NCBI GenBank assembly: GCA_023264145.1
Contig: JALQTA010000001.1
Location: forward strand, 15,465 to 79,464
Length of the DNA stretch: 64,000 nucleotides
Direction: 5' to 3'
Source of the DNA: Minisyncoccota bacterium
Lineage (GTDB): Bacteria; Patescibacteriota; Minisyncoccia; SW-4-49-11
The notes under the pieces are model-generated. The model was not told the DNA's origin, ran no database searches, and worked only from the letters and a program-made list of their open reading frames with translations. This document shows positions 12,282 through 56,777 of the stretch, in pieces (the first letter of the stretch is position 1; each line of letters opens with the position of its first letter). A program made the position numbers and the translations under genes.

Positions 12282-12482
12282 TTAAGCAGCGAGGCTTTTA
12301 TTAATAGTTCGAATACAAGTGGTACAGGCCTTTACTTTGGTTCCATCAGGAAGCGTATAAGGCTGTACATTTACTTTTTGAGTATGCTTACTGGTAGGGT
12401 TATAATTTCCACGCAATAATTTACGCTTGGTTACAACCATCGCTTTTTTTGTACAAATTGGTAATTCACATCGTCGAGACAT
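12282..12482 (-). CDS. zinc-ribbon ribosomal protein, L28/L33 family (probably L28)
   Basis: 66 aa, MSRRCELPIC...CTTC four-Cys ribbon with a basic composition. The N-terminus resembles L28. Confidence 0.4.
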   Translation of the reverse strand: MSRRCELPICTKKAMVVTKRKLLRGNYNPTSKHTQKVNVQPYTLPDGTKVKACTTCIRTINKSLAA

Positions 12483-17872: not shown

Positions 17873-17873
17873 T

Positions 17874-26589: not shown

Positions 26590-27837
26590 ATGAAACGAAA
26601 ATATCCTTATATACTCTCTTTTCTCATCATACTTACCTTAGTAGGTATGCCAAAGTCTATATGGGCCAATACTCAGGCAAATATTAATGCAAAAAATGCT
26701 CAAATACAACAATTAGAGCGTCAGATTCAATCAATTCAGAATACTAAAAATCAAACAACACAGCAAAAATCAGCTAAAGAAGCAGAGGTTACCAATTTAC
26801 GAAATCAAGTAAATCAACTGAATAAAGATATATCAACGCTACAAAATCAACTGAATCAAGTAGGCCAGCAAATTACAGAAACAGAAAATAATATTCAGTC
26901 TACGACACAAAGTATTCAAGAGTTGGAGCAGAAAATTGATGAAAATAAAGCTACACTTCAGGGGCTCGTAGAAAATCTATATAAACAGTCTCATGTAAAA
27001 AATGAAATTGTGGCGGTAGTAAGTGCAGATAATTTATCTGAAGTATTCAATGCAGTAAAATATTCAGATACCATACAAAATCGTATTCAAGTCCTATTGA
27101 CTGAAGTAATGGATAAAAAAGCAGCCTTAGATGTGGAAAATCAGAATTTATCCAATCAAAAAGCAACGCTTGCCTCAACTCAGGGAACATTAGAAGATAG
27201 AAAAGAATCTATTGAAAGCAGTAAAAATCAAGTACAAAGTCAAGCTCAAGCTTCGGCTGTCGCGGTGAATCAATTAAATGCTAGTTTAAACAACCTTAAT
27301 TCTCGACAACAGGAATTAGAAAGACAGCGTCGAGCAACAGCGGTAGAGTTAGCTAACTTAGAGGCAAGTTTATCTCGACAATTTGGAGGAGAAGGTCGAG
27401 TATGTTCCGCCAGAGGATATGCCTGGCCCGTGCAAGGAGGAAGAATTACGCAAGGATTTGGAATGACTCCATTTGCCCGTACTGGAGCTTATGGAGGAGC
27501 GGGACATAATGGAATTGATATTGGAGCCCCAACGGGAACTCCGGTATTTGCTACAGCATCAGGAACCGTAGTAAGTGTAGGGTTTAATAATAACTCATAT
27601 GGAAAATGGATTGTAATACGGCATGATGATGGATACTTTTCTCTCTATGGCCATTTATCAGCACAAAGTGTTTCTAATGGACAAAGTGTAACAAGAGGGC
27701 AGCGTATCGGGTCTATTGGAGCTACGGGATTTGCCACAGGCCCACATCTTCACTTCACGATTTATTTACCAAACTCATTACGTATAGGCTCTAGTCCACA
27801 AGGGGCTCCGGTAAATCCTTCAACTTGTGGATATTAA
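26590..27837 (+). CDS. M23-family peptidase with a long N-terminal coiled coil (EnvC-like)
   Basis: Signal peptide, about 250 aa of Q/N-rich heptad-like coiled coil, and a C-terminal M23 domain (HNGIDIGAPTGTPV, GHLS, HLHF). Confidence 0.7.
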   Translation: MKRKYPYILSFLIILTLVGMPKSIWANTQANINAKNAQIQQLERQIQSIQNTKNQTTQQKSAKEAEVTNLRNQVNQLNKDISTLQNQLNQVGQQITETENNIQSTTQSIQELEQKIDENKATLQGLVENLYKQSHVKNEIVAVVSADNLSEVFNAVKYSDTIQNRIQVLLTEVMDKKAALDVENQNLSNQKATLASTQGTLEDRKESIESSKNQVQSQAQASAVAVNQLNASLNNLNSRQQELERQRRATAVELANLEASLSRQFGGEGRVCSARGYAWPVQGGRITQGFGMTPFARTGAYGGAGHNGIDIGAPTGTPVFATASGTVVSVGFNNNSYGKWIVIRHDDGYFSLYGHLSAQSVSNGQSVTRGQRIGSIGATGFATGPHLHFTIYLPNSLRIGSSPQGAPVNPSTCGY

Positions 27838-36940: not shown

Positions 36941-37011
36941 ATAGCTATAGTATAACGTATTTTTAGAATATTGACGATAGTAGGATATATACATAACCTT
37001 GTTGTATACTA

Positions 37012-37040
37012 TTGACAAAATGGCTATTTTATGCTATTAT
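37012..37040 (+). promoter_or_regulatory. island promoter copy 1: TTGACAAAATGGCTATTTTATGCTATTAT (-35 TTGACA, 17-nt spacer, -10 TATTAT)
   Basis: Read directly from the sequence; 28 nt upstream of the island gene A start. Confidence 0.55.
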
Positions 37041-37068
37041 CACACAGAACCTTATGCCTCGGAGGCAT

Positions 37069-37992
37069 ATGTACATTCTCAAACTGATGATGGGGACTCT
37101 GGTCCTCATCGCAACCGCCATCCCGGTTATGGCACAGGGCCTTCCCGTTACCTGCAAGCAGGTGGGAGACAAGGCCGTCATCTCCACCCCCGGTTTTTCG
37201 GGGTCGTGGATGAGCTTCGGATCAGGGCGCTTGAGCCCAGCCTCGACGGAGACGGTAATTCCGAACTTTCGGAATGCACCGTTTCCCTTGGTCGGGAACA
37301 AGGCTGTGAATCCTGGTGATCCGCAGTCTTGGTTCAAGATCGAGAGGGTGACTCCCGAACAAAAGCGTGCCTCCGGGTGTGGCTTTGTTCAGGCAGGGGT
37401 CCTGATCCCGGGAAGCAACTGGACTCCGGTGCAGATCGCGAATACCCGTTCGCAACTTTCTGCGCAGGGAGGAGTGCTCGGAAATCCCGCTACCTTTGCC
37501 GTGGTTCCTGTCCCCGCCGTAGGACCGGCGACCCGTTCCAGGGTGATTATCTCTCGTAAGGGAGATGCCATCACCTTGGAACTGCCTCCTTCCACGGAGA
37601 GCAGTCAATGGGTAGTTCAGCGGGGACAGTCCGGCCCCATTGTTGGACGACCCACCACGGGTATCGAGGGGCTTCATCGCACCTCGACCTTCCTCAGCGC
37701 CTATCAGCGCTTTGAGGCGGTGGTGAAGACCAATCGTGGCTGGCCTGTCACCGTGCCCCTGACTCTTCAGGGTCTGCGGATTACTGGCACCTTGCCAGCA
37801 GATTGGCATTCCTTCGCCATTGTGGCAAGGGGATCAGGGCAGGACGCCTGGTTGCAGGTGGGCCCCGCCATTGAGCAGGGGCTTACCCAGCATGATGGTG
37901 TCCCAGATGCTTTCTGGGGAGGGCGGACGGACAATTCGTTGTTTACCGTTCCTGGGAACAACCCCAACCCGGGGTATTTCTGGACCCGCTGA
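37069..37992 (+). CDS. GC-rich island gene A: secreted protein of unknown function (307 aa, signal peptide MYILKLMMGTLVLIATAIPVMAQG)
   Basis: RBS GGAGG 4 nt upstream of the ATG at 37069 and a clean signal peptide. About 60% GC against a ~30% background. The track ORF 37012..37992 is trimmed to the RBS-supported start. Confidence 0.55.
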   Translation: MYILKLMMGTLVLIATAIPVMAQGLPVTCKQVGDKAVISTPGFSGSWMSFGSGRLSPASTETVIPNFRNAPFPLVGNKAVNPGDPQSWFKIERVTPEQKRASGCGFVQAGVLIPGSNWTPVQIANTRSQLSAQGGVLGNPATFAVVPVPAVGPATRSRVIISRKGDAITLELPPSTESSQWVVQRGQSGPIVGRPTTGIEGLHRTSTFLSAYQRFEAVVKTNRGWPVTVPLTLQGLRITGTLPADWHSFAIVARGSGQDAWLQVGPAIEQGLTQHDGVPDAFWGGRTDNSLFTVPGNNPNPGYFWTR

Positions 37993-38010
37993 TCTTCCGT
38001 TAACAAGTTC

Positions 38011-38045
38011 GCCGCCAGCACCCAGTGCTGGCGGCTTTTTCTTTT
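38011..38045 (+). terminator. intrinsic terminator GCCGCCAGCAC-cca-GTGCTGGCGGC followed by TTTTTCTTTT
   Basis: 11-bp perfect GC-rich stem plus a T-run, 19 nt after the gene A stop. Confidence 0.6.
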
Positions 38046-38072
38046 GACTTGATATATAGGGAAATATATGGT
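38044..38072 (+). promoter_or_regulatory. island promoter for gene B: TTGACT-17-TATGGT (weaker variant)
   Basis: TTGACT at 38044..38049, a 17-nt spacer and TATGGT at 38067..38072; it abuts the preceding terminator T-run. Confidence 0.35.
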
Positions 38073-38106
38073 ATGGTGAAATAGCAAATTATGAGGTTTT
38101 CCTCTC

Positions 38107-38547
38107 ATGCAAAGGCTCATCTGTTCTTTGGTGACTGTGGTTTCATTGTCCGTTCCTTCATCTGCTTTGGCTCAGTATTACCCATATCAAGGAGGTGGTA
38201 CTCAATATGGCCATCAACAGAAAGATCCTGACTATCTGGAACTCCGGTTTCGAGATGGTCGGCGGGTAGTTACATACCCTGTTTCTGGTACTCGACATGA
38301 AGATGTTGCTGCTCAGCACGGTATTGCCTACTGTGAGCAATATTGGAGAGAAGTGGTACCTCCTCCAGGATTCGGATACGCTGCAGTGATCTCTCAGGGG
38401 GCTTGTAGGGGTAGGCAGATCAATCACCAACCGATTAATCGGTACCCCGATCACAAACATCAACGTCGATGGGTAAATCCTGTTCCAAGGCAACATCTTC
38501 CCATTTTGAATGGAGGAAGTAACTGTCTGCTTTTCTGTTTTAACTAG
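38107..38547 (+). CDS. GC-rich island gene B: small secreted Cys-containing protein, paralog of gene C; the 3' end may read through past the original stop
   Basis: RBS GAGG 10 nt upstream of the ATG. Signal peptide MQRLICSLVTVVSLSVPSSALAQ. It shares a ...V/I..P.RPGFGYAA.I.Q C-terminal block with gene C. About 45 codons after that block are lower-GC and have no counterpart in gene C. Confidence 0.45.
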   Translation: MQRLICSLVTVVSLSVPSSALAQYYPYQGGGTQYGHQQKDPDYLELRFRDGRRVVTYPVSGTRHEDVAAQHGIAYCEQYWREVVPPPGFGYAAVISQGACRGRQINHQPINRYPDHKHQRRWVNPVPRQHLPILNGGSNCLLFCFN

Positions 38548-38589
38548 ATGTGTTTCTGTCCCATACAACCGTTTTCTTAATCTCTTCGC

Positions 38590-38623
38590 GCCGGTAGTGG
38601 TAAACTGCCGGTATTTTTTTTTG
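38590..38623 (+). terminator. hairpin (G)CCGGTAG-tggtaaa-CTGCCGG(T) followed by TATTTTTTTTTT
   Basis: 7-8 bp stem with one G-U pair and a 10-T run, 43 nt after the gene B stop. Confidence 0.45.
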
Positions 38624-38633
38624 CTCTAACCTC

Positions 38634-38662
38634 TTGACAAAATGTATAAAATATGCTATAGT
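38634..38662 (+). promoter_or_regulatory. island promoter copy 2: TTGACAAAATGTATAAAATATGCTATAGT (-35 TTGACA, 17-nt spacer, -10 TATAGT)
   Basis: Read directly from the sequence; 27 nt upstream of the gene C start. Confidence 0.55.
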
Positions 38663-38689
38663 GCCATCGTCAACACTTGGAGCAATCCA

Positions 38690-38998
38690 ATGAAGTGCCT
38701 TTCCAGCTTCGCCAGCGTTCTGCTGGCTTCCACCTTGCCCCTCCTCGCCGTGGCTCCCGCCATGGCAACCCCTCAGCCCCAGGAGGGTCGGGGGATGCTC
38801 CCCGATCTCATTCTTCTCAAGTTCGCCGATGGGCGAATGGAGGAGGTGTCCAATCCCTCCCGTGCTGCGGGGGGGCGGCCCCACGAAGTGGTGGCCGCTG
38901 AAAAGGGGATTCCGACGGCCTGCCAAGCGTGGCAGGAAATCCCGTCTCGGCCAGGATTCGGATACGCTGCACAGATCACCCAGATCTGTGGTAACTGA
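38690..38998 (+). CDS. GC-rich island gene C: small secreted protein (102 aa), paralog of gene B
   Basis: RBS GGAG 7 nt upstream of the ATG at 38690. Signal peptide MKCLSSFASVLLASTLPLLAVAPAMA. It ends ...RPGFGYAAQITQICGN. The track ORF 38642..38998 is trimmed. Confidence 0.5.
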   Translation: MKCLSSFASVLLASTLPLLAVAPAMATPQPQEGRGMLPDLILLKFADGRMEEVSNPSRAAGGRPHEVVAAEKGIPTACQAWQEIPSRPGFGYAAQITQICGN

Positions 38999-39021
38999 GC
39001 CTGCTCAGCAATCGTCCAATC

Positions 39022-39049
39022 GCCCCCTGCACTGCAGGGGGCTTTTTTT
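39022..39049 (+). terminator. intrinsic terminator GCCCCCTG-cactg-CAGGGGGC followed by TTTTTTT
   Basis: 8-bp perfect GC stem plus a 7-T run, 23 nt after the gene C stop. Confidence 0.6.
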
Positions 39050-39085
39050 ATTCTCTTATGATACTATTTCAGATGTTGTTATCTA

Positions 39086-39114
39086 TTGACAAAATAGCTA
39101 TTATATGCTATAAT
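39086..39114 (+). promoter_or_regulatory. island promoter copy 3: TTGACAAAATAGCTATTATATGCTATAAT (-35 TTGACA, 17-nt spacer, -10 TATAAT)
   Basis: Perfect -35 and -10 hexamers with a 17-nt spacer; 35 nt upstream of the gene D start. Confidence 0.6.
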
Positions 39115-39149
39115 CTCAACGTTCTGTACATTCTCAACGGAGTTTTCTT

Positions 39150-40280
39150 ATGAAACTTCTCAAACAACTTCTCCTGCCCATTGCAGCATGTGCTGCGGTG
39201 TTTGGAGGAATGCCTGTGGAAGCGCAGGTTGAATCGCTCTCCCCTCGAGAGCAACTCCAGCAGCTGCGTGCAATGCGCAAGGCTGCTGAAGCTCGCAATG
39301 CGAATGCGGGTGAGGTGCAACAGGTGTCCCAACCTGTGAATCCTCCCGTCCAGCAAGCTCCACCGGGTCCACCGCCCGTAATGGCGGCAATTCCGGCCCC
39401 CGCTCCCGTGCTGGCCACCCCTCCTCAAAAGGAGCAGGGGCCTTCCACTTCTGGTATCGTGGTCCCTCCTCGGGACTCGATTCCCCAGCAGGGAGAGGGG
39501 CAGTGGAAGCCCCTCCGAGTTCACACCGAATTCCGTTCCCTTCCGCGGAATACGGCTTTCGATGTGAAGGCTGAGCTGGGCACCCAGAATGGGTGGATGT
39601 TTGGGGCTCAGTTCGTGACTCAGTCTGGATCTTTCACAGGTGAGAACCTGAAGGAGATCTGGAAGGGGTCCTATACGGATACCCGGGCAGAGTTCTGGGG
39701 AGGCCGTCATTGGTCCTCCCAGGATTCTAAAACCCGGTGGTCGGTGAACGCCTTTGTGCGGCAGCTGACACATACCGATTCTGGTGAAGGCAGGAGTCGT
39801 CCGGGCAATCCGGATTCCTACACCTACACCTGGAGGAATCCGGTGAAGCCCCTCACCCAAGTGGGTGTGAGAGCCAGGGTCGAGCATGACCTCATCCGGA
39901 CGGAGAGTCAACAGCTCACCGTTCACCTCAAGGGTGAGGTGGCTGCCACTGTCTCAGGACAGTCTGGCTTGGCCTACGATGTCCAGACAGGCGTCTGGTA
40001 TCGGACGGCACGGATCGAAGCCTATGCTGAAGCCGGTGTGAATAATACCGGCGGGTACGCTAATGGTTACGGCCGTTATTACCTGACTAAGGGTGGTCAG
40101 CTCAAGCCCTTCGTGGAGGTGCGGGGTGAGGTTGGTACTGGCTACCACAACGCCCAAGTGGGCGCTGGTGTCCAGGTGGGGATCGGCAAGAACGCTTACG
40201 CCGAAGGTGTGCTTGGCTACAACGCTGGCACCTCTGGCAATGGCATGGCTGTCATCACCCGGTTCGGTTTCCGATTCTGA
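39150..40280 (+). CDS. GC-rich island gene D: secreted Pro/Gln-rich-linker protein with a beta-barrel-OMP-like C-terminus (...AVITRFGFRF)
   Basis: RBS GGAG upstream and signal peptide MKLLKQLLLPIAACAAVFGGMPVEAQ. A PxxP/Q-rich spacer is followed by about 250 aa of Gly/Tyr/Thr-rich sequence with alternating hydrophobics. It ends in the aromatic C-terminal Phe motif typical of outer-membrane beta-barrels. Confidence 0.55.
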   Translation: MKLLKQLLLPIAACAAVFGGMPVEAQVESLSPREQLQQLRAMRKAAEARNANAGEVQQVSQPVNPPVQQAPPGPPPVMAAIPAPAPVLATPPQKEQGPSTSGIVVPPRDSIPQQGEGQWKPLRVHTEFRSLPRNTAFDVKAELGTQNGWMFGAQFVTQSGSFTGENLKEIWKGSYTDTRAEFWGGRHWSSQDSKTRWSVNAFVRQLTHTDSGEGRSRPGNPDSYTYTWRNPVKPLTQVGVRARVEHDLIRTESQQLTVHLKGEVAATVSGQSGLAYDVQTGVWYRTARIEAYAEAGVNNTGGYANGYGRYYLTKGGQLKPFVEVRGEVGTGYHNAQVGAGVQVGIGKNAYAEGVLGYNAGTSGNGMAVITRFGFRF

Positions 40281-40364
40281 CGCAAAATAGAAACGATAGT
40301 AGCTATCTAATCGGAGTAATCTGAGAAGAGAAGTTGCCTTGACCGTTTCTGGTTTTGAATATAT

Positions 40365-40392
40365 CCCTCGTTGTTCGCAGCGAGGGTTTTTT
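40365..40392 (+). terminator. hairpin CCCTCG-ttgttcgcag-CGAGGG followed by TTTTTTATTT
   Basis: 6-bp stem (extendable with one mismatch) plus a T-run, 85 nt after the gene D stop. Confidence 0.45.
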
Positions 40393-47566: not shown

Positions 47567-48640
47567 TTGATGTTAGGAATTGGGTCAAAAAATTCATTTG
47601 GAATTGATATCGGGACACAAACGATAAAAATTTCTGAAGTTAATAAAAAAAACGGACGGATATTGGTTGAAAATTATGCGATATGGAGTAATGATATCAC
47701 CAATATTATTCAAGAAAAAAGTGGGGAGCATGCTCTTTCAGTGGAGAAAATTGTATCTATCATCCAGATGATGCTGAATAGTGCTCAGATGAATATCAAA
47801 GAGGCTTATATGGCAATTCCATCATATTTAGCTTTCTCCACGGTGATTGAAATGCCTGCCCTGTCTGCAGAAGAACTTATCACCGCAGTCCCATTAGAGG
47901 CGAAGCAACATATTCCTGTTCCCTTTGATACGGTACAATTAGATTGGGTTAATTTAGGTAAGAAAGCCTCAAAAGACACCTTAAATATTTTACTTATTGC
48001 AATTCCTAATAATGTCATTACTAAGTATATGGAAGTGAGTCAGGCATTAGGAATTACCATAAAAGGATTTGAACTTGATGTTTTCTCTGTAATACGATCA
48101 ATTGATTTGCCACCTAAGCAAGTATGTATTGTGGATATGGGAGCACGTACAAGTACTGTAAGTATTATTAATCCTGATCAACAATTACAAGTCTTACAAT
48201 CATTTGACTTTGGAGGAAATCATATTACAGAAGCGATTTCTCAGCTAAAGCATATCTCTTTAATAGAAGCTGATTTGTTGAAAAAAAATAATGGTATCTC
48301 AGGCTCTGATACTGAAGTTTCGGCTGCAGTTCAAACACGAATAAGGGGATTTATTACCAATGAAGTTGTTCGAATGATTCGTCAAACACAGGAAAGAAGT
48401 GACTTTGTGATTGAGGATATTATTTTGCTCGGTGGTTTTGCAAAAATGTCTGGAATACAGGAGTTTGTTTCAATGATTATAAAAAATAATTTTAATACCG
48501 ATAAACCAATAGCTGTTTCTATGGCAATTCCTACTCCTAATCTAACTATAAAGGGAGTTAAAGATGCAACGATAATACACTCAACCTGGCAAGATCTTGT
48601 ATTATCAATCGGTATTGGCTTAAAAGATTACAATATATAA
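47567..48640 (+). CDS. pilM: type IV pilus assembly protein PilM (actin-like ATPase)
   Basis: N-terminal FGIDIGTQTIKISEV and an actin/FtsA-like fold; first gene of the pilMNO block. Confidence 0.65.
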   Translation: MMLGIGSKNSFGIDIGTQTIKISEVNKKNGRILVENYAIWSNDITNIIQEKSGEHALSVEKIVSIIQMMLNSAQMNIKEAYMAIPSYLAFSTVIEMPALSAEELITAVPLEAKQHIPVPFDTVQLDWVNLGKKASKDTLNILLIAIPNNVITKYMEVSQALGITIKGFELDVFSVIRSIDLPPKQVCIVDMGARTSTVSIINPDQQLQVLQSFDFGGNHITEAISQLKHISLIEADLLKKNNGISGSDTEVSAAVQTRIRGFITNEVVRMIRQTQERSDFVIEDIILLGGFAKMSGIQEFVSMIIKNNFNTDKPIAVSMAIPTPNLTIKGVKDATIIHSTWQDLVLSIGIGLKDYNI

Positions 48641-48641
48641 T

Positions 48642-49175
48642 ATGGATAATATTTCATTTATTCCTGCTAATCAAAAAAATATCAATGGACAGGTTTTGCC
48701 ATACTCGAACTCAAAACCCTACAGCACAACCTTTATGTGGATAACTATATTCTTAGTAATATACGGAATAGTGGTTGCGTTAGGGTATTGGTTTTTTATT
48801 GCTGAGCGTAAGTCAATGATAACAGAAAAAATTACAGATCTAGATAGTCAAAATGCAAACTATTATCCACAAGGAAATTTAGAGCAAAGTTTTTTTAATA
48901 TAACAGATATTATACAAAAACGAAGAGATATCAATAAGATTATTCAATCTGTGGAAGCAACCTTTATTCCTAATTTAAGAGTTAAAAATATTGTATATAT
49001 TAAAAAAAATAATACGCTTTTATTATCTGCAGTTGCTCCCACAATTAGTGATGTCACAACTCAAGTAGCTGCAATCAATAAATTACCTGAAGTATTGCCT
49101 TCAGATGCGCCTTCCATTGAGCAATTAGAAAATAATGAAGGAGCATCTTTTAATCTTATTATTAATTTGAAATAA
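48642..49175 (+). CDS. PilN-like type IV pilus assembly protein
   Basis: Bitopic (single TM near residue 45) and located directly after pilM; assignment is by synteny and topology. Confidence 0.4.
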   Translation: MDNISFIPANQKNINGQVLPYSNSKPYSTTFMWITIFLVIYGIVVALGYWFFIAERKSMITEKITDLDSQNANYYPQGNLEQSFFNITDIIQKRRDINKIIQSVEATFIPNLRVKNIVYIKKNNTLLLSAVAPTISDVTTQVAAINKLPEVLPSDAPSIEQLENNEGASFNLIINLK

Positions 49176-49180
49176 TATCT

Positions 49181-49750
49181 ATGAATAAAGAAAATATCTA
49201 TTTCAATATCGCCTTTATTGTAGTATTTGGTTTTTTACTAGCTACCATTAACTCAGTAGTATCTGCTCGATTTTCGTCTGAGATGAAAAGTATCAATGAG
49301 CTTGAAAGACAATTACAAATTAAAGAAGCTTTTGCAGCTCAAAAATCTCCTCAAGAACTATCTGAAAGAATGAAAAAATCTATACCTGCTTCTCTTGATA
49401 AGTCTGCTATAACTCTTGCTCTTGATCAATTTGCTCGGGAGTCTAATGTTAGAATGCCCTCTTTGTCAGTAGAAGAGACTAAAAAACAAGCAGTATCTTT
49501 AGGAGATACCGCGGGCACTTCATCAGTATCTGAAGCCGTTAATATCCCTGTAGAGATGACAAATACTCTTAGATCTGCAACTATTGAAGTTTCCATTGAA
49601 GGAGGAAGACGAGAGATATATGCTTTTATTCAAAAAATATTAACAGCAAATCCATATATGGAGGTGACAGACCTTTCTCTTTCCTTTGATAAAGGTCTTG
49701 GTGCTGTAGAAGGGAATATTACCGCAATAACATATTATACTGGACTATGA
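49181..49750 (+). CDS. PilO-like type IV pilus assembly protein
   Basis: N-terminal TM plus coiled coil, following the PilN-like gene; assignment is by synteny and topology. Confidence 0.35.
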   Translation: MNKENIYFNIAFIVVFGFLLATINSVVSARFSSEMKSINELERQLQIKEAFAAQKSPQELSERMKKSIPASLDKSAITLALDQFARESNVRMPSLSVEETKKQAVSLGDTAGTSSVSEAVNIPVEMTNTLRSATIEVSIEGGRREIYAFIQKILTANPYMEVTDLSLSFDKGLGAVEGNITAITYYTGL

Positions 49751-49903
49751 ACAATATCATAAAATATCAAAAAACTATTGTAAGATTAAGCTGTTTTATT
49801 ATTACATTATACTTTTTATATACATTAGGGATGATTATTTTTGGAGATATAATTATGAATACAGGGTCTCCTATACCAGATATATCTATTATTAGTAAAT
49901 ATT

Positions 49904-51634
49904 TTGGTTTATAATATGATGCAATTTGATTTAAAAAAAACATTTGAAGTTCTTAAAAATGACTATCCAGATATATTTAAGGATATCCAATCTTTTGAGT
50001 CTTTACCAGAATCTGAAATCCGAACTTTTTTAGAAAAGAATTTTACAGAAAAAGAATTGTTAAAAGTCAATGCTGAGCTATTGGGGCTTACTTTTATTAA
50101 TTTAGAGGATAAGACTATTCCAAAAGAACTTTATACTATCCTTCCTTTTACGATTATGAAGCGATATACGGTAGCACCTTTTGCTCAAGAGGGGAATACC
50201 ATATATATTGCTATTGCTGATCCATATAACTATACGGCATTACAAGCAATTCGATTTGCATTTCAAGATAAGAACTTATCCTTTGAACTTCATGTAGCCA
50301 CTGAAGAAGATATTAAACAATTACTTCGTAAATCTGAAAACTTAAGTAATACGGTTACTGAGACATTAGAGGAATTTCATCAAAAAAATGAATCAGCTCA
50401 AGTATTGCCCGACGTTGATGAAATGACCACTGAAAACCTTGAGACAGCTCCTATTATCAAAATTGTATCCGTTATTATTAAAAATGCGGTAGAGGGAGGC
50501 GCCTCTGATATTCATATTGAGGGAACAGAAGAAAATGTACGTGTTCGATTTCGTGTAGATGGGGTGTTACATACGAGTCTTGTATTGCCAAAAGAAGTAT
50601 ATTCTCCAGTAGTTGCTCGTATTAAAATTTTATCTAATTTAAAAATTGACGAACAGAGAAAACCTCAAGATGGTAGATTTTCTATTTTAGAAAAGGATAA
50701 AAAAGTTGACTTCCGTGTCTCTACTTTTCCTACTCAATATGGAGAAAAAGTAGTATTGAGAATTTTAGATACTTCAAATGGTATTCGATCTATAGAAGAA
50801 TTAGGTTTTATGGGCCCTAAATTAGCAATGATTCAGGACGCCATTACCAAACCATTTGGAATGATTCTATTGACAGGACCAACAGGATCAGGAAAATCTA
50901 CTACGGTATATACATTATTATCTCAAGTCAATAAAGAAGATATTAATATTGTAACTCTTGAAGACCCTATTGAATATTATTTATCCGGGGTCAATCAGTC
51001 TCAAGTAAAGCCAGAAATTAACTATACCTTTGCATCGGGACTTCGCTCTATTTTAAGACAAGATCCAGATGTCATTATGGTGGGGGAGATTCGAGATGGT
51101 GAAACTGCGGGACTTGCCGTACAGTCAGCCTTAACAGGTCATATTGTGTTTTCTACTCTTCATACTAATGACTCTCCTGGAGCTATTCCACGACTTATTG
51201 ATATGGGGGTAGAGCCATTCTTATTATCAGCTTCTCTTCAAGTAGTAATTGCGCAAAGATTGATTCGTAAATTATGTAATGAGTGTAAGAAAGAAGTACC
51301 ATTAGAAGAAAAAGAGAGAGAGTATATTAAAAAATCTCTTGATACCTTGACTCCAGAATATATCTCTTCTGTATATAGTGGAAATTATGAAAGTATCTAT
51401 GTTCCTGTGGGATGTCCTAAATGTTCCAATGGATTTAAAGGAAGAATGGCTATCTTTGAAATTGTCTCAATGACAGAAGAGTTACAAAGCATTGTATCTA
51501 AAAATTTTAGTGAAACTGAAATTATGGATTATCTCAGAAGAAATGACTATGTAACCTTAAAACAAGATGGAATCTTTAAGGTACTTAATGGATACCTTTC
51601 ATTACCTGAGTTATTAACATCCATAGAAATATAG
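49904..51634 (+). CDS. pilB: type IV pilus assembly ATPase PilB (GspE family)
   Basis: N-terminal GSPII-like domain, Walker A LLTGPTGSGKSTT, Asp/His boxes and a tetracysteine motif (CNECK...CPKC). The start codon is uncertain; MMQFD at 49916 is equally plausible. Confidence 0.8.
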   Translation: MVYNMMQFDLKKTFEVLKNDYPDIFKDIQSFESLPESEIRTFLEKNFTEKELLKVNAELLGLTFINLEDKTIPKELYTILPFTIMKRYTVAPFAQEGNTIYIAIADPYNYTALQAIRFAFQDKNLSFELHVATEEDIKQLLRKSENLSNTVTETLEEFHQKNESAQVLPDVDEMTTENLETAPIIKIVSVIIKNAVEGGASDIHIEGTEENVRVRFRVDGVLHTSLVLPKEVYSPVVARIKILSNLKIDEQRKPQDGRFSILEKDKKVDFRVSTFPTQYGEKVVLRILDTSNGIRSIEELGFMGPKLAMIQDAITKPFGMILLTGPTGSGKSTTVYTLLSQVNKEDINIVTLEDPIEYYLSGVNQSQVKPEINYTFASGLRSILRQDPDVIMVGEIRDGETAGLAVQSALTGHIVFSTLHTNDSPGAIPRLIDMGVEPFLLSASLQVVIAQRLIRKLCNECKKEVPLEEKEREYIKKSLDTLTPEYISSVYSGNYESIYVPVGCPKCSNGFKGRMAIFEIVSMTEELQSIVSKNFSETEIMDYLRRNDYVTLKQDGIFKVLNGYLSLPELLTSIEI

Positions 51635-51683
51635 TCAAATATATAAAAGTATGATACTATCAATATATGATAAATAAATACCT

Positions 51684-52061
51684 ATGAAACATAATATACT
51701 CCTGGTTGAAGATGATAGCTTTATTACCCAAATGTATGCTACTAAAATTGATGAATTGGGGTTAAGTGTTGTAACAGCATCAGAACAAGAAGAAGTAAAA
51801 AAAGCTTTAAAATCAAATAAAAAATTCAATCTTATCTTACTTGATTTGGTTCTTCCTGATGTGAGTGGCTTTGATATTTTGAAGTGGATAAAAGGACAAG
51901 ATGCTCTAAAAGATATTCCTGTTATTGTTCTCAGTAATTTATCTTCACAGGCTGATATTAATCAAGCCTTTGAGCTTGGGGTAGTAGACTATGTAGTGAA
52001 ATCTAATTATACGCCAACTGAAGTGATGAGAATTGTACAGAAATACTTGCCAGCTACTTAA
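51684..52061 (+). CDS. single-domain response regulator (CheY/PilH-like receiver)
   Basis: 125-aa receiver with LLVEDD, LILLDLVLPD and KSN motifs and no output domain. Confidence 0.6.
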   Translation: MKHNILLVEDDSFITQMYATKIDELGLSVVTASEQEEVKKALKSNKKFNLILLDLVLPDVSGFDILKWIKGQDALKDIPVIVLSNLSSQADINQAFELGVVDYVVKSNYTPTEVMRIVQKYLPAT

Positions 52062-52082
52062 ATCTAATTAATAAAAATCAAT

Positions 52083-53156
52083 ATGCAAATCAATTTACCC
52101 GATATTATTACTCAAATTGTAACGGCGAAAGGATCAGATATTCATTTAACCACCGGAAGTAAGCCGATATTAAGAATAAAAAATCGATTAATTACCTTAG
52201 ACAATCATGAAGTTCTTACAAAGGAGGGATTAGACGAATTTTTAAATACTGCTATTCGACCAGATCAAGTTACTCAATTATATGCAGGGAAAGAGCAAGA
52301 TTTTGCCTATACTTCTTCAGATGGAGCTTATAGATTTCGTGTCAATGCTTTTATTGCTCAAGGAAATCCTAATTTAGTAATGAGATATTTACCATCTGAA
52401 ATTCTGACCTTTGAGCAATTGGGACTTCCTACTATTATGCATCAATTCAGTCAGTTGATGCAGGGATTTGTATTGGTAACTGGGCCAACGGGATCTGGAA
52501 AGTCAACAACATTAGCTTCAGTAATTAATGAAATTAATCATACCAGAGATGTAAAAGTGGTAACGATTGAAGATCCTATTGAGTTTATATATCAATCAGA
52601 TAAAAGTATTATTACCCAAAGAGAAGTTGGATATGATACGGAAAGCTTTAGTGGGGCTTTAGAATCCGCCTTTCGTCAAGATATTGATGTTATTCTCTTA
52701 GGGGAAATGAGAGATTTAGATACAATGAAAGTAGCAGTTACGGCTGCTGAGACCGGGCATTTAGTATTCTCAACCTTGCATACTAATAGTGCTGCTCAAT
52801 CTATTGATCGAATTATTGATACTTTCCCCACCCATCAACAGGGTCAGGTTCGCTCTCAGATATCAACCTCCCTACAAGCAGTAGTATCTCAGAGATTAAT
52901 TCCTACTATTAAGGGAGATTTAACTCCAGCACTTGAAATTTTATTAGCAAATAATGCAGTAAAGAGTCTCATTCGTGAAAATCGTATTTATCAATTAGAC
53001 ACCGTGATTGATACCCATCGTAAAGATGGCATGATTTCTATGAATGTATCTCTGTTTGATTTGATTCGTACAGGAATTGTATCTTATGAAACAGCTTTGT
53101 TGTATTCTCCTGATCCTGTGAGTTTAAGAAATATGTTAAAAAGATCAACTATATAA
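52083..53156 (+). CDS. pilT: twitching-motility / pilus retraction ATPase PilT
   Basis: 357 aa, Walker A VLVTGPTGSGKSTT, and the PilT-typical AIRNLIRE-like helix (VKSLIRENR). Confidence 0.8.
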   Translation: MQINLPDIITQIVTAKGSDIHLTTGSKPILRIKNRLITLDNHEVLTKEGLDEFLNTAIRPDQVTQLYAGKEQDFAYTSSDGAYRFRVNAFIAQGNPNLVMRYLPSEILTFEQLGLPTIMHQFSQLMQGFVLVTGPTGSGKSTTLASVINEINHTRDVKVVTIEDPIEFIYQSDKSIITQREVGYDTESFSGALESAFRQDIDVILLGEMRDLDTMKVAVTAAETGHLVFSTLHTNSAAQSIDRIIDTFPTHQQGQVRSQISTSLQAVVSQRLIPTIKGDLTPALEILLANNAVKSLIRENRIYQLDTVIDTHRKDGMISMNVSLFDLIRTGIVSYETALLYSPDPVSLRNMLKRSTI

Positions 53157-53165
53157 AACATTATT

Positions 53166-54383
53166 ATGGCAAAATTTAACTATTTAGCAAAAGCACAAGA
53201 TGGAAGTTCTCGAAAGGGGACGGTTACGGCATCGAATTCAGATACTGCCTTAAGTACCTTGCAGTCCAATGGTCTGATTGTTATTTCTCTACAAGATGCC
53301 AATGCTCAGTCTGTATTCTCTCAAGACCTAGAAGTATTTAATCGAGTAACTGCCCGAGAATTGGTAATATTTTCACGAATTTTGGCTACATTTCTTGAGG
53401 TGCAAATTCCTCTTGTTGATGCTATGGCGATGTTAGCTGAGCAGAATAAGAAAAATAAATATTTTACTTCGGTTCTTGCCCAAGTAATTACTGATTTACA
53501 AGATGGAAATCTTTTATCAGAAGCTTTATCAAAACATCCCAAAGTTTTTGATAGATTATATATCTCTATGATACGGTCTGGAGAAGCTTCAGGAGGATTA
53601 CAGGAGACATTGACCTATATGGCAGATTATCTTGAGGATCAGTATGAGCTCAATAATAAAATTAAGGGAGCTTTAGCCTATCCTATATTTGTGTTATTAG
53701 TATTCCTGGTTATAGGAATTGGTATAGCATACTTTATTCTTCCTCAATTAGTAGATGTCCTTCAAAGTCTTGGTACTGATACTGAGCTTCCATGGACAAC
53801 TCAACTGATTATTTTAGGATCCAATATTATTCAAAATTATATTTGGTTTCTATTAGGAGGGATTATTATTTTATTAGGAGGAATTTGGGCCTTCTTAAGG
53901 ACAGAGGCTGGGAAGAGGTTTAGTGATACCTGGAAAATTAGACTTCCTGTATTTGGAAGTTTATTTACCAAAATGTATGTAGCACGTTTTTCTACCAATA
54001 TGAAAACTCTTTTACAAGGAGGGGTTCCTATTATTATGGCATTAGAAATTAGTTCTGATGTGGTAGGAAATTATGTCTTTGAGGGTATAATTAAAGAGGC
54101 TATCGTAGAGATTAAAGGAGGAGCTGTAATGTCAAAAGCTTTCCTAAATCATGCTGAATTTCCTCAGATTGCTTCACAGATTATATCGGTGGGAGAGAAG
54201 ACTGGTAAGATGAATTCCGTTCTCGAGACATTAGCTCGATTTTATAAGAGAGAAGTTGATGTAGTGGTCGATAACTTAACCACATTAATTGAACCAGTAA
54301 TGATTGTGATACTAGGGATTGGGGTTGCTATATTTGTGATCTCAATTTTGATGCCAATTTATAATGTGGCTGGATCTATTTAA
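53166..54383 (+). CDS. pilC: type IV pilus inner-membrane platform protein PilC (GspF family)
   Basis: 405 aa with two GspF repeats, each followed by TM segments. Confidence 0.75.
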   Translation: MAKFNYLAKAQDGSSRKGTVTASNSDTALSTLQSNGLIVISLQDANAQSVFSQDLEVFNRVTARELVIFSRILATFLEVQIPLVDAMAMLAEQNKKNKYFTSVLAQVITDLQDGNLLSEALSKHPKVFDRLYISMIRSGEASGGLQETLTYMADYLEDQYELNNKIKGALAYPIFVLLVFLVIGIGIAYFILPQLVDVLQSLGTDTELPWTTQLIILGSNIIQNYIWFLLGGIIILLGGIWAFLRTEAGKRFSDTWKIRLPVFGSLFTKMYVARFSTNMKTLLQGGVPIIMALEISSDVVGNYVFEGIIKEAIVEIKGGAVMSKAFLNHAEFPQIASQIISVGEKTGKMNSVLETLARFYKREVDVVVDNLTTLIEPVMIVILGIGVAIFVISILMPIYNVAGSI

Positions 54384-54417
54384 TATAACGTAATATGAAG
54401 AAGGGGGGTGTAAATAA

Positions 54418-54810
54418 ATGAAGCAATTAAAAAAAGGATTTACACTTATCGAGCTATTGGTGGTAATTGCAATTATTGCTATATTAGCTTCTGTGGTATT
54501 GGTAAATGTAAATCAAGCTCGTAGAAGGGCACAAGCAGCAGCTATCAAGTCAGCATTATCTCAATTAAGAACTGATAAAGAGTTAAACTTTAATGGTACA
54601 AATTATCCTTTGACACCAGCAAATTCTCAAATTCGAGCTACAATATCAGCGAATAATGGAACTTTTGCTGAAACTGCAACTCCTGGTCCAGCATATTTTG
54701 CGGCATCTACCGTCCCAGGTGAGAACGCATTTTGTGTAGATAGTACAGGGGTTGCTAGAACTTTAGGAACAACCGCTACTCCACCTACCACAGCTACAGC
54801 ATGTCCATAG
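54418..54810 (+). CDS. pilA: type IV (major) pilin
   Basis: Class III signal MKQLKKG|FTLIELLVVIAIIAILA with Glu at +5 and a C-terminal Cys pair. Confidence 0.7.
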   Translation: MKQLKKGFTLIELLVVIAIIAILASVVLVNVNQARRRAQAAAIKSALSQLRTDKELNFNGTNYPLTPANSQIRATISANNGTFAETATPGPAYFAASTVPGENAFCVDSTGVARTLGTTATPPTTATACP

Positions 54811-54847
54811 TTCAAATTACGATGTATAGATAAGAGATTTAACCCTC

Positions 54848-55702
54848 TTGTCTATCATGATAATTGGAACACAATATATGATAATAGGTATTTGGATATT
54901 TTTTAGTATTATTGGCCTTGGAATTGGGAGCTTTCTTAATGTCGTTATCTTTCGGATGGAGACAGAAAAAAAGTTCTGGAATGGAAGGTCTGAGTGTATG
55001 CATTGTCACCATACATTAGCCTGGTATGAATTAATTCCAGTACTTTCTTATATTCTACAAAGAGGGAAGTGTAGAGAATGTGAAGTCTCATTATCTCCTC
55101 AATATCCTCTTGTAGAGATAGGTACTAGTTTATTGTTCGGCGGAGTAGCCTATCTTTATGCTCCAGACCTTAGTGCGATAGTAGGGTTATCCTGGATAGA
55201 TTATGTCTATGCAATGCTTGTATTGATTCTGGTTACTCAATTGATGATTATTTTTGTGTATGATGTACGGTATCAGTTGATACCCGCAATACAATTAAGA
55301 GCAATACAAGTCTTAGGCTTGATATGGTTTATACTTCATTATTATCAAAATCGTATTGTATCAGATTCCTGGTTAACGGTACTGTTGAGTGTGTCAATTG
55401 TATTATTTTTATATATTGTTACCAAAAAACAGGGAATAGGGTGGGGAGATGTAGAGCTATTCGCAGGACTTGGTTTTTTTATCCCCTTTATGTGGTTTGT
55501 CCCATTTTTCTTTGGGTCATTTATTATAGGAACCATATGGGGGCTTACCGTAATGATAATCAATCATAATAATTCTTTAAAACAAAAAATTGCTTTTGGC
55601 CCAAGTATTATTGTTTCTTTTGTGATTATGTATAGTATTATTCAGCTCAATATTGTACCTTCTGTTAATTTATGGTATTATTTAATTATTCCTAATATAT
55701 AA
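54848..55702 (+). CDS. pilD: prepilin peptidase (A24 family)
   Basis: N-terminal Cys tetrad CMHC...CREC and polytopic membrane domains. Confidence 0.7.
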   Translation: MSIMIIGTQYMIIGIWIFFSIIGLGIGSFLNVVIFRMETEKKFWNGRSECMHCHHTLAWYELIPVLSYILQRGKCRECEVSLSPQYPLVEIGTSLLFGGVAYLYAPDLSAIVGLSWIDYVYAMLVLILVTQLMIIFVYDVRYQLIPAIQLRAIQVLGLIWFILHYYQNRIVSDSWLTVLLSVSIVLFLYIVTKKQGIGWGDVELFAGLGFFIPFMWFVPFFFGSFIIGTIWGLTVMIINHNNSLKQKIAFGPSIIVSFVIMYSIIQLNIVPSVNLWYYLIIPNI

Positions 55703-55709
55703 AATAAAT

Positions 55710-56216
55710 ATGCAAAAAGGATTTTCATTAGTAGAGCTTATTGTAAGTGTCGCTATTATTAGTACCTTGTCTACTATAGGAATTACTTCTTATGCATCAA
55801 GTCAACGTAGAGCTCAACTTGATGCAGATGTAATTTCTGTATATTCTGCTATTCGTAAGGCACAAAATAGGGCTTTATCACCCTCTAAATCTGATTTTGG
55901 TATTGCTGAGACAGATGAATTATGTGCCTTAGGGGTTGATTTTCAGTCTCCTAATAGAATTAGACCTTTTGCTATATCTCGTTCTCCTGGTCCAGGAGCT
56001 CCCTGTGGGTCGTCAGGATTACCAAAAGTTTATAGGGGAGAAACTCTATTATCAACGAGCTCCTTTGGTCATACAGGTACTATAGAAGTATTATTTAGTC
56101 CACCCTTTGCTCAAAAACAATCTACAGGAAATACCAATATCCAAATTCGAAACTCAGGAAATACCTTAACAAAAACGATTACCATTAGTAGTACAGGGTT
56201 AATAAAAACAAATTAA
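55710..56216 (+). CDS. minor pilin (prepilin-type N-terminal cleavage/methylation domain)
   Basis: MQKG|FSLVELIVSVAII class III signal. Confidence 0.55.
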   Translation: MQKGFSLVELIVSVAIISTLSTIGITSYASSQRRAQLDADVISVYSAIRKAQNRALSPSKSDFGIAETDELCALGVDFQSPNRIRPFAISRSPGPGAPCGSSGLPKVYRGETLLSTSSFGHTGTIEVLFSPPFAQKQSTGNTNIQIRNSGNTLTKTITISSTGLIKTN

Positions 56217-56219
56217 TAT

Positions 56220-56774
56220 ATGAAAATATATAAAGGATCAACATTGGTAGGAGCTCTCTTAGCCGTATTCATTTTATCTACAACCTTGGTTGCAATTCTT
56301 AATTTACAAGTAAGTATTATACAGGCAGATTTCTTTCGTAAATATGATAATACCGCAAATTTATTAGTGTCTGAGGGATTGGAATTAGTACGAGCAGTAT
56401 ATGCAAATAATGTTGAAGATACTTCTTCTGCTCCTTGGAATGAAGGACTTCAAGATGGAAGATATGCTATAGATTATGGTACGATAAATGTAATGAATGG
56501 TAATCAATTATTGAGTACTCAAAGTATAGGTAATACCTGTGATACGACCACCCCACCTACAATATCTTCCTCATGTGCTCTTATGAATACTGGAACTGGG
56601 TATAGAATCAATCCTGTAGGAAATACGATATATCGGTATGTTGATATATCGGGAAGTACCTCATCTTCTTCAGAAATTCAAGTGAAAAGTGTAGTTATGG
56701 TCAGAAATCCACGATTAAATACTACAAGAGTCTATTCTGCTGATATGACATTGTTTAATGTTAATAATAAATAA
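56220..56774 (+). CDS. minor pilin-like protein (non-canonical, Gly at +5)
   Basis: MKIYKG|STLVGALLAVFILS hydrophobic N-terminus resembling PilV/PilX types that lack Glu+5. Confidence 0.35.
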   Translation: MKIYKGSTLVGALLAVFILSTTLVAILNLQVSIIQADFFRKYDNTANLLVSEGLELVRAVYANNVEDTSSAPWNEGLQDGRYAIDYGTINVMNGNQLLSTQSIGNTCDTTTPPTISSSCALMNTGTGYRINPVGNTIYRYVDISGSTSSSSEIQVKSVVMVRNPRLNTTRVYSADMTLFNVNNK

Positions 56775-56777
56775 TAT

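Follow-up and report, generated by a model that had tools for sequence, protein, structure and literature searches.

Beta-barrel outer membrane proteins (OMPs), BamA and outer membrane (OM) tethers are the markers by which one membrane is told from two in bacterial genomes. Bacteria of the candidate phyla radiation (CPR) are scored as monoderms that lost all such markers, and this scoring feeds reconstructions of the ancestral bacterial envelope; loss of the OmpM system has been reported for CPR (bioRxiv 10.1101/2021.05.31.446380). Within the Terrabacteria, the toga of Thermotoga is an outer layer made largely of arrayed beta-barrel proteins with small lipid patches (PMC10160955). We analysed a 64-kb window, the whole stretch of 64,000 nucleotides from positions 15,465 to 79,464 of contig JALQTA010000001.1 of a Minisyncoccota bacterium, and in it a gene, here called D, which an earlier note had read from the window's letters as encoding an OM beta-barrel protein in a CPR-like genome. 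The genome is indeed CPR, since its relatives bear the titles Candidatus Paceibacteria or Parcubacteria group. Four genes on one strand, A to D, lie in an island of ~3.3 kb (~37050-40300) with sharp edges and a GC content of 55-65% in a genome of 34% GC; D is the last of them. The island, its four monocistronic genes for secreted proteins, their consensus promoters and their hyper-folded mRNAs are all absent from the earlier note. Together, the OMP-type barrel and the hyper-folded mRNAs hint at an unrecognised outer envelope layer or at a pore in a host membrane.

Gene D encodes a predicted OMP-type beta-barrel

The open reading frame (ORF) called for D in the earlier note, 376 residues long, was reproduced (Table 1). 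By inspection, a charged n-region, a hydrophobic core and a cleavage site of the AxA type can be recognised in its N-terminus, MKLLKQLLLPIAACAAVFGGMPVEA/QV, so that the n-, h- and c-regions of the cleavable signal peptide proposed there, with a VEA/Q site, are all present. In the homolog alignment the AxA/Q-type site is common to both N-terminal variants of the D family. We ruled out D as a lipoprotein because the Cys at position 14 is not conserved among homologs. The mature N-terminus carries a helix followed by a Pro/Gln-rich spacer, which had also been noticed earlier and which is disordered in the structural model described below. The helix motif and a PPGPPPV segment persist even in an allele with a 28%-identical barrel, and the length of the spacer differs from allele to allele. 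The likeness of the spacer to periplasm-spanning linkers is also upheld, as this Pro-rich segment lies between the conserved N-terminal helix and the barrel, where such a linker would be.

We ran AlphaFold2 (AF2) for D on a 30-sequence alignment and obtained five models. Residues 121-376 reached a predicted local distance difference test score (pLDDT) of 85-94 in all five, while residues 1-120 were modelled with low confidence except for the helix at 32-51. The confident region consists of 15 consecutive strand elements by DSSP, antiparallel and joined by turns of 2-8 residues, which in this model are best read as 14 strands. The AlphaFold prediction that the earlier note had proposed for residues ~120-376 therefore returned a barrel and not a soluble non-barrel fold. 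A Foldseek search of the PDB with the model gave 175 matches at E<=1e-3, the best 50 of which were all OM barrels with a probability of ~1.0. Among these listed top 50 were TodX/FadL, autotransporter beta-domains, PelB, FapF, OmpG, KdgM and general porins; OmpG matched D with a template modelling (TM) score of 0.57-0.58 when normalised by target length. The best matches in a viral structure library were likewise OMP-type barrels.

The sequence of the barrel region agrees with this fold. The alternating hydrophobic residues described earlier resolved into a hydrophobic strand face with a family-mean Kyte-Doolittle value of +1.03 and a polar, charged face of -1.63; the dyad alternation is clear in 10 of the 15 strand elements, and Arg, Glu, Lys and His are abundant on the inner face. 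Of the three residues in which the barrel had been called rich, Gly (14% of residues 121-376) and Thr (9%) are common, but Tyr falls outside the ten commonest. The protein ends in ...GMAVITRFGFRF (M-A-V-I-T-R-F-G-F-R-F), which has the features of a beta-signal, namely a terminal Phe or Trp and hydrophobic residues at -3, -5, -7 and -9. The x-Phe-x-Phe ending singled out by the note is a family trait: a C-terminal G-[FIL]-[RK]-F is conserved in D homologs, and across the 30 homologs Gly373 is invariant and Phe376 at least 90% conserved. D is the only ORF of at least 100 residues in the window with an OMP-like C-terminus. Taken together, the AF2 barrel, the OM-barrel Foldseek matches and the dyad faces bear out the OM beta-barrel reading at the level of the fold, and the prediction of an OMP-type beta-barrel for D is one of high confidence.

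Could D nevertheless lie outside any membrane, as a secreted soluble or wall-associated beta-rich protein whose barrel AF2 over-predicts? Searches of Pfam, NCBIfam and PDB sequences with the D sequence and profile found no match to any described OMP family, and the alignment is shallow, with 30 fairly similar sequences. The hydrophobic faces of strands 3-6 are weak, and the connecting loops are short on both sides, unlike those of typical porins. However, such a protein would have to accommodate the high pLDDT of all five models, top PDB matches that, as listed, are OM barrels without exception, a hydrophobic face opposite a charged one in two thirds of the strand elements (10/15) and a conserved terminal aromatic motif; moreover, its hydrophobic belt, ~250 residues long, would be insoluble. 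We consider a non-membrane D very unlikely.

D is a resident gene of a Paceibacteria clade

We detected 40 homologs of D at E<=1e-3, none of them annotated, and an exhaustive HMMER search of 1.84 billion cluster representatives found D relatives in four clusters at 50% identity. A profile search with a barrel-only alignment that included distant members recovered the same family and nothing further. None of the homology, HMMER and profile searches found a D relative outside the Paceibacteria clade, and a scan of viral contigs found none. Among GTDB species genomes, D occurs in ones titled Candidatus Paceibacteria, Parcubacteria group or uncultured bacterium, several of which were assembled from freshwater-lake metagenomes. 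The identification of the closest homologs and their taxonomy, suggested in the earlier note, has thus been carried out, and it confines D relatives to the Paceibacteria/Parcubacteria clade.

In all nine contexts with long flanks, D occupies the same slot, between Wzz, Wzy_C and GT4 genes on one side and GT4, DUF4012, RecG, TrmD, KH and type IV pilus genes on the other. P0041, a homolog 40% identical to D, likewise lies upstream of GT4-DUF4012, and L008 has the downstream GT4-DUF4012 pair in common with the D locus. Flanking proteins of the window and of related genomes are 58-79% identical. D is 53-74% identical to most related alleles and only 28% in L011, whose flanks are equally close, so that the identity of D alleles does not follow that of the flanks. 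The alleles are also mosaic; P0007 and P0023, for example, have one 65-residue block of the barrel at 48% identity and another at 100%. The products of A, B and C are far more divergent between lineages than D, or unrecognisable.

The ratio of nonsynonymous to synonymous substitution rates (dN/dS) was 0.20-0.27 for D and 0.09-0.23 for the flanks. The D ORF is intact in all lineages, with in-frame indels and frame-specific purifying selection. Homologs called at 227 residues were considered as pseudogenes and rejected, being gene-caller truncations; L014 encodes the full-length protein. An assembly chimera was likewise rejected, as the island recurs in independent assemblies. On this sequence evidence, D is a resident, selected gene, native and vertically inherited rather than a decaying xenolog, because it has a syntenic slot, a dN/dS of ~0.2 and full-length homologs. 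Very probably it is a functional OMP-type barrel native to this lineage. What the earlier note had observed in D, its barrel-like character, stands; the branch of its interpretation that derived D from a diderm donor does not.

Composition of the island

The GC content of the island is 0.59 against 0.34 for the genome. A, C and D have a GC at third codon positions (GC3) of 0.62-0.69 and B one of 0.36, compared with 0.228 +/- 0.049 in all other ORFs of the window. Codon usage differs accordingly between island and flanks: AAG makes up 84% against 24% of Lys codons, TTA 0% against 48% of Leu codons and ATA 0% against 24% of Ile codons, and A stands at 11% against 36% of third positions. GC is raised at all three codon positions of the island and its amino-acid composition is shifted. 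Amino-acid composition was excluded as the cause of the GC-richness, since GC3 and four-fold degenerate sites are affected.

The composition of such islands is commonly taken as a sign of transfer, and here the sharp compositional boundaries, a codon usage typical of a genome of 55-60% GC and the presence of an OMP-type fold in a monoderm-like genome could all be read as a recent acquisition from a diderm bacterium, with D a decaying, non-functional xenolog. Beyond atypical composition and codon usage, however, the usual attributes of a horizontal island were missing: the distribution is not patchy, and there are no mobility genes or scars and no donor homologs. At the island boundaries we found no integrase, adjacent tRNA, flanking repeats, tandem repeats or insertion scars, and in the island no phage or defence-system families (PHROGs, PADLOC, viral contigs). 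D instead keeps its slot in genomes whose flanking proteins have diverged to just 58-79% identity, it has an intact ORF under selection with its own conserved promoter, Shine-Dalgarno sequence and terminator, and it has no homolog outside the clade, all of which contradicts the xenolog proposed earlier.

Divergence between lineages provides a further test of age. The GC3 excess (0.51-0.71 vs 0.16-0.25) recurs in lineages L001, L005, L006, L007, L011 and L014, and P0041 and P0042, distant homologs in the syntenic slot, have a GC3 close to the native value. Four-fold sites at or near saturation, as judged from identities of 0.25 between D and its L011 allele (expected 0.26) and of 0.36-0.40 between A genes (expected 0.27), are still 49-72% GC. 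Under a two-state mutation model, neutral decay towards the genome value of ~0.2 should have erased most of the GC excess after more than one substitution per site. The excess has outlasted this decay, and we therefore infer that an active force maintains it. Synteny with diverged flanks, recurrence across lineages and GC at saturated sites exclude an unameliorated recent horizontal transfer, and recent acquisition in general is highly improbable. The GC-richness of the island is no mark of foreign origin, and the island warns against taking every compositional island for horizontal transfer.

Folding of the island mRNAs

GC-rich patches in AT-rich genomes usually mark structured RNA, and we therefore tested folding, measured in 150-nt windows against dinucleotide shuffles. 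Mean z was -2.5 for A, -4.05 for C and -2.5 for D, with 75-100% of windows below -2, compared with values between -0.56 and +0.23 for B (-0.3) and five flanking genes. The island is the only sustained folded block in the 64 kb (mean z -2.22 and 57% of windows below -2, vs -0.22 and 6.7% elsewhere). In a stricter codon-permutation control, synonymous codons were swapped among positions of the same amino acid in 30 permutations, so that protein and codon counts are unchanged. The native sequences of A, C and D were ~12 kcal/mol per 150 nt more stable than their permutations (z -8.9, -5.4 and -8.6), none of the 30 reaching the native value. This is a gain of roughly 20-23%, and the folding-energy excess of the island genes was about 17-25%; z was -0.6 for B and -0.3 to -2.0 for the flanks. 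The same control indicated hyper-folding in every D homolog tested (z -8.0 in the 28%-identity allele and -5.1 in P0041, weak at -1.8 in P0042) and in A-type genes of other lineages (-2.8 to -4.6). As external controls we took eleven genes of 46-67% GC, among them E. coli ompA and xylN, a FadL-type gene of plasmid pWW0. Their z lay between +2.5 and -2.5 and their energy excess between -10% and +5%, which rules out the folding excess as an artefact of GC content or of encoding an OMP-type protein.

The structure predicted is a chain of local 6-12-bp hairpins (-0.43 kcal/nt, against -0.21 in the next gene), in which pairing involves all three codon positions to the same extent. In D, a predicted hairpin also covers the Shine-Dalgarno sequence and start codon. 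The folding signal is stronger on the sense strand in six of eight genes. Close lineages share 11-37% of predicted pairs, and 2-5% are shared with L011; a specific conserved RNA structure was rejected, since few pairs are shared or compensatory. Because the pairs are so poorly conserved, the conserved trait is foldedness and no particular fold.

Non-coding RNA (ncRNA) classically shows up in AT-rich genomes as GC-rich sequence that folds strongly, and GC-rich DNA should have long ORFs on both strands by chance, so the block might be one large structured ncRNA with spurious ORFs. However, Rfam gave no family in the island at gathering or at permissive thresholds, and the base pairs are not conserved. 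What is found instead is frame-specific purifying selection, in-frame indels, signal peptides, a ribosome-binding site, promoter and terminator for each ORF, and a confident protein fold. A non-coding block is scarcely credible.

The GC could also stem from a recombination hotspot with GC-biased gene conversion, or from alleles imported repeatedly out of an unsampled GC-rich pool, with folding as a side effect. The mosaic D alleles, the uncoupling of D identity from flank identity and the breaking of contigs at the island would suit such a process, as would the rise in GC at all three codon positions with its shift in amino-acid composition. The four-fold sites of D, which are closer between some lineages than those of the flanks (identity 0.55-0.59 vs 0.31-0.47), could mean more recent allele sharing. 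Yet GC enrichment ends at the ends of the coding sequences (CDSs): the segments flanking D, which hold its promoter and terminator, are 36-42% GC in nearly all lineages. Nor was a GC-rich donor or reservoir detectable among 5.8 billion and 1.84 billion proteins. The GC-rich control genes lack a folding excess, and B, although inside the island, is neither GC-rich nor folded. The folding excess is more than composition alone can account for, as ~20% of the stability is lost in shuffles and codon permutations that preserve composition. GC-biased gene conversion is a partial rival, which accounts for neither the order-dependent folding excess, the sharp CDS boundaries nor B, and as the source of the island's GC we think either process distinctly unlikely.

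We lean towards mRNA folding as what maintains the GC-rich codons. Highly structured coding sequences lengthen functional mRNA half-life in experiments in eukaryotic cells (bioRxiv 10.1101/549022), and selection for long-lived mRNAs of abundant secreted proteins may keep the A, C and D CDSs GC-rich. Such selection would also explain why the four-fold sites of D are more conserved than those of the flanks. A, C and D are held 25-35 GC points above the genome, with synonymous codons arranged for ~20% extra mRNA folding energy, and the island would be an unusually clean natural case of selection on the RNA structure of coding sequences.

Several other features of the window touch on RNA structure and decay. 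Two tandem RNase J paralogs (588 and 591 residues) are encoded at 16106-19649 and RNase III at 3421-4101, which are relevant to a possible protection of transcripts from decay by folding. The 420-nt intergenic region 7323-7742 (+), between genes for a response regulator (6654-7322) and a histidine kinase (7743-8888), contains folding windows that are among the strongest outside the island (z -4.2 at 7351-7500 and -5.3 at 7651-7800). It has no Rfam match at the gathering threshold and may be an undescribed ncRNA or leader. Other isolated windows with z < -3.8 lie at 12151-12300, 12601-12750, 301-450, 26701-26850 and 54751-54900, some of them at gene ends or in an M50 peptidase gene.

Location and role of the D barrel

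Overall, the best explanation is a native, Sec-exported, tethered porin-like barrel, probably in an outer layer of the cell's own, whose gene is GC-rich through mRNA folding; we regard this combined account as evenly poised between right and wrong. D would be exported by Sec and processed, and its conserved helix would then bind a conserved component of the cell itself, be it the wall or a partner protein. From there the spacer, rich in proline, would bridge towards the barrel layer, over an estimated ~15-20 nm if extended at ~3 Å per residue. The barrel would lie outside the cytoplasmic membrane, in a hydrophobic layer beyond the wall, and serve as a pore; helix and spacer would hold it to the wall, and recombination would diversify the exposed barrel. 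D is probably a highly expressed, abundant envelope protein of this freshwater Paceibacteria clade, and the GC-richness probably a by-product of selection for densely base-paired, presumably long-lived A, C and D mRNAs. As to the layer itself, a lineage-specific sheath or OM-like layer of the cell's own is the most likely location of the barrel, though we assign it tentatively. We rank it first because of the usual logic of tethers between OM and wall, the precedent of the Thermotoga toga and a promoter strength that suggests a bulk structural protein.

The envelope context was surveyed with Pfam on essentially all ORFs of at least 150 residues in the window and a few kb beyond its edges. The wall and envelope genes of the window include MurG, MurC, UppS, BacA, a TagA/WecG-type transferase, Wzz/Wzy and GT4. 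A DUF11/CLIPPER-type repeat protein of 634 residues (20405-22309), of GC3 not elevated, is likely a large surface protein. A type IV pilus cluster at 47567-57233 encodes PilM, two small proteins, a PilB-like ATPase, a response regulator, a PilT-like ATPase, PilC, a prepilin peptidase and three pilin-like proteins, with no secretin gene, and fits a monoderm-type pilus.

A number of points weigh against a tethered barrel in an outer layer of the cell's own. The earlier note had seen no lipopolysaccharide (LPS), BAM or Lol genes in the window, and the survey upheld this: none of Omp85/BamA, LptD (Lpt), Lpx, Lol, TolC or a secretin was detected in the 64 kb, nor anything relevant to OM biogenesis in the few kb beyond its edges. 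The TagA/WecG-type transferase and the secretin-less pilus cluster give the cell a monoderm look. The D family is confined to one clade and is therefore no marker of a general CPR outer membrane. Within D, barrel closure and strand number are read from DSSP and fold matches, and the refined beta-signal zeta-x-G-x-x-aromatic-x-aromatic, with Gly at -5, is matched in part, the Gly of D being at -3. The expression level of D is judged from consensus motifs. For the mRNAs, all the structural evidence is thermodynamic prediction, from which the role of folding is inferred, and specific pairs are poorly conserved, with four of 67 recurrent pairs compensatory. To our knowledge, an outer membrane has been neither seen nor inferred in any CPR bacterium. 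Patescibacteria have been termed a monoderm phylum (PMC11665869), and CPR are placed in a monoderm clade that lost porins and the tether formed by OmpM and its S-layer homology (SLH) domain, and are reported to be without Omp85/BamA, LPS genes and OmpM (bioRxiv 10.1101/2021.05.31.446380; PMC10160955). The CPR envelope annotation of the latter study itself rests on no cryo-electron tomography (PMC10160955). We found no report of an OMP-type barrel in CPR in the literature searched, the coverage of which was partial.

A different destination for the barrel was also considered. D might be exported by an epibiont into the outer membrane of a diderm host, as a feeding or attachment channel tethered to the CPR wall through helix and spacer, its C-terminal beta-signal serving for recognition by the host's BAM or the barrel inserting spontaneously. 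CPR are regarded as monoderm and the window holds no OM-biogenesis genes. The anchor of D is conserved while its barrel is variable and mosaic, and A, B and C are hypervariable, as host-interaction factors would be. Bacterial porins can also be assembled by a foreign machine of the Omp85 family, as with Neisseria PorB in mitochondria, which counts in favour of host insertion. Images of freshwater Paceibacteria show some cells living freely and others attached to larger prokaryotes (PMC9166423). The attached cells favour an epibiont, but the free-living ones do not, and no host is known for this clade. There is also no known precedent for a monomeric 14-stranded barrel entering an LPS-bearing leaflet from outside, without access to periplasmic BAM, and a promoter of consensus strength fits a bulk structural protein better than a specialised effector. 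We therefore regard insertion into a host as unlikely, if worth keeping in view. Nothing supports an extreme variant, in which host-like codon usage and hyper-stable mRNAs reflect delivery of transcripts or genes for expression in the host.

Either way, the monoderm scoring is challenged by a CPR clade that has a conserved OMP-type barrel whose gene carries a consensus promoter. If the barrel lies in a layer of the cell's own, some Patescibacteria build an outer layer that genomic markers have missed. If it lies in a host membrane, an epibiont exports a porin into its partner's membrane, which would give a molecular handle on nutrient acquisition by ultra-small cells.

Genes and transcription signals of the island

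Genes A to D each form a separate transcription unit, with a sigma-70-type promoter and a terminator made of a GC stem and a T-run (Table 1). Promoters were scored against the sigma-70 consensus over 12 positions. Those of A, C and D constitute one 45-nt direct-repeat family with the core TTGACAAAAT-N10-TGCTATAAT, the three best matches to which in the window lie exactly at these three genes. Other lineages conserve the upstream GATGTTGTTATCTA of the D promoter, and its -35 element as well. The D start is preceded by a GGAG Shine-Dalgarno sequence, and the hairpin before the terminator in the 3' untranslated region (UTR) is conserved across lineages in the alignment.

Table 1. Coordinates of gene D, of the other island genes and of their transcription signals
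Feature	Position (strand)	Description
Promoter cassette of A	37000..37044 (+)	-35 TTGACA 37012-37017; 17-nt spacer; TG-extended -10 TATTAT 37035-37040; 11/12
Gene A, secreted protein	37069..37992 (+)	307 aa; start refined, GGAGG 4 nt upstream; GC 0.59, GC3 ~0.65
Terminator of A	38011..38035 (+)	Intrinsic; 11-bp GC stem, then T-run
Promoter of B	38044..38072 (+)	Weaker, 9/12
Gene B, small secreted Cys-containing protein	38107..38547 (+)	146 aa; GC 0.47, GC3 0.36
Terminator of B	38590..38612 (+)	
Promoter cassette of C	38622..38666 (+)	-35 38634-38639; TG-extended -10 TATAGT 38657-38662; 11/12
Gene C, small secreted protein	38690..38998 (+)	102 aa; start refined, longer ORF from 38642 contains the promoter; GC 0.60, GC3 0.69
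Terminator of C	39022..39042 (+)	
Promoter cassette of D	39074..39118 (+)	-35 TTGACA 39086-39091; 17-nt spacer; extended -10, TGc-TATAAT 39109-39114; perfect 12/12
Gene D	39150..40280 (+)	376 aa
D signal peptide	39150..39227 (+)	aa 1-26; by inspection; cleavage after VEA; AxA/Q kept in two N-terminal family types
D amphipathic helix, putative tether/anchor	39243..39302 (+)	aa 32-51, ...REQLQQLRAMRKAAEARN...; AF2 helix; conserved motif
D Pro/Gln-rich spacer	39315..39509 (+)	aa 56-120; 26% Pro, 15% Gln; pLDDT <50
D beta-barrel domain (predicted)	39510..40280 (+)	aa 121-376 and stop; ~14 strands; ends ...RFGFRF; AF2, Foldseek, dyad hydrophobicity
D 3' UTR	40283..40386 (+)	Long hairpin, arms 40284-40295 / 40344-40355, contains conserved GCCTTGACCnTTTCTGGTTTT; terminator 40365-40386
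Extra-gene region of other lineages	L006 11060-11518; L007 11186-11653; L011 11165-11642; L014 10685-11152	Equivalent in the window: 40281-40467

Proteins A to D all start with signal-peptide-like segments, and searches of Pfam, NCBIfam, PHROGs, PADLOC and PDB sequences gave no match above threshold for any of them. The product of A has six homologs only and two conserved Cys; its nearest family hit was T2SSC, below threshold (E 0.013). Its AF2 model was poor (pLDDT 58.7), with no significant fold match and a vague resemblance to a tandem beta-sandwich. B and C are paralogs (38% identity, E 9e-15 by BLASTP).

The first codons of A (ATGTACATTCTCAAAC, 37068-37084) recur in the 5' UTR of D (39123-39139) and, modified, at the D start (39149-39165), which looks like the duplication, in one piece, of a module of promoter, 5' UTR and signal-peptide start. 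The third island gene of L014 (8955-9344) is paralogous to the N-terminal part of the A gene of that lineage (7418-8311) and not to B. To judge from such comparisons of sequence, the island's accessory genes for secreted proteins vary between lineages through duplication and shuffling. Between the D terminator and the downstream glycosyltransferase gene, four lineages have an extra small gene with its own TATAAT-type promoter; it is called at 63-68 residues in L011 and L014 and is absent from the window and from L001. Contigs from other samples with identical flanking proteins stop at or near the island edges, L012 ending at Wzy and L013 starting in RecG, which suggests strain-level heterogeneity or effects of coverage or composition. 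Antisense ORFs of 128-272 residues in the island, at 39108-39926 (-), 37222-37809 (-) and 38540-38926 (-), are by-products and not genes; they are expected because GC-rich sequence has few stop codons, and the selection signal lies in the sense frames.

Comparison with known systems

The folding of the island genes resembles the genome-scale ordered structure of RNA (GORS) in some RNA viruses, in which an order-dependent folding excess likewise takes the form of many consecutive stem-loops with poorly conserved pairs. Published minimum folding energy differences (MFEDs) are ~1% for unstructured genomes, 7-11% for HCV and 15% for SARS-CoV-2, with a maximum of ~23% (PMC7642675). The 17-25% of the island is only approximately comparable with these values, as shuffling method and window size differ from the MFED protocol. 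The RNA also differs in kind, being bacterial chromosomal mRNA for three secreted proteins, and the benefit proposed here is mRNA longevity and not immune evasion.

For the architecture of D as a whole, the nearest parallels are the tethers OmpM/SlpA and OmpA/OprF, with which it has in common a tripartite plan of wall anchor, periplasm-spanning spacer and outer-layer barrel. D has no SLH domain by Pfam and no detected sequence homology to OmpM/SlpA, and the stalk of the latter is a long coiled coil, whereas that of D would be a 20-residue helix and a ~65-residue Pro-rich disordered spacer. The Thermotoga toga, with its Omp-beta barrels and Omp-alpha tethers, is a plausible model for a lipid-poor CPR cell housing D. 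However, Thermotoga has BamA-family proteins.

Type Va autotransporters (AIDA-I, EspP, Hbp, BrkA, NalP) rank high among the fold matches to D and also have an N-terminal segment before a C-terminal barrel. In these proteins the barrel is 12-stranded, an alpha-helical linker lies in the pore and the passenger is large, whereas D has ~14 predicted strands, ~95 mostly disordered residues upstream, no passenger and no Pfam autotransporter match. The best structural matches are the monomeric 14-stranded barrels OmpG and FadL/TodX (Foldseek E 6e-7 to 4e-5, TM up to 0.58, target-normalised). D is like them in predicted strand number, antiparallel all-next-neighbour topology, hydrophobic exterior, polar lumen and terminal aromatic residue. 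It differs from them in lacking sequence similarity and a predicted FadL-type N-terminal hatch, in its short loops on both sides, in its N-terminal helix and Pro-rich extension, and in belonging to a phylum considered monoderm. D is best filed as an orphan family of OMP-type barrels, outside the described families and distinct from the autotransporters, that is confined to a clade of Paceibacteria.

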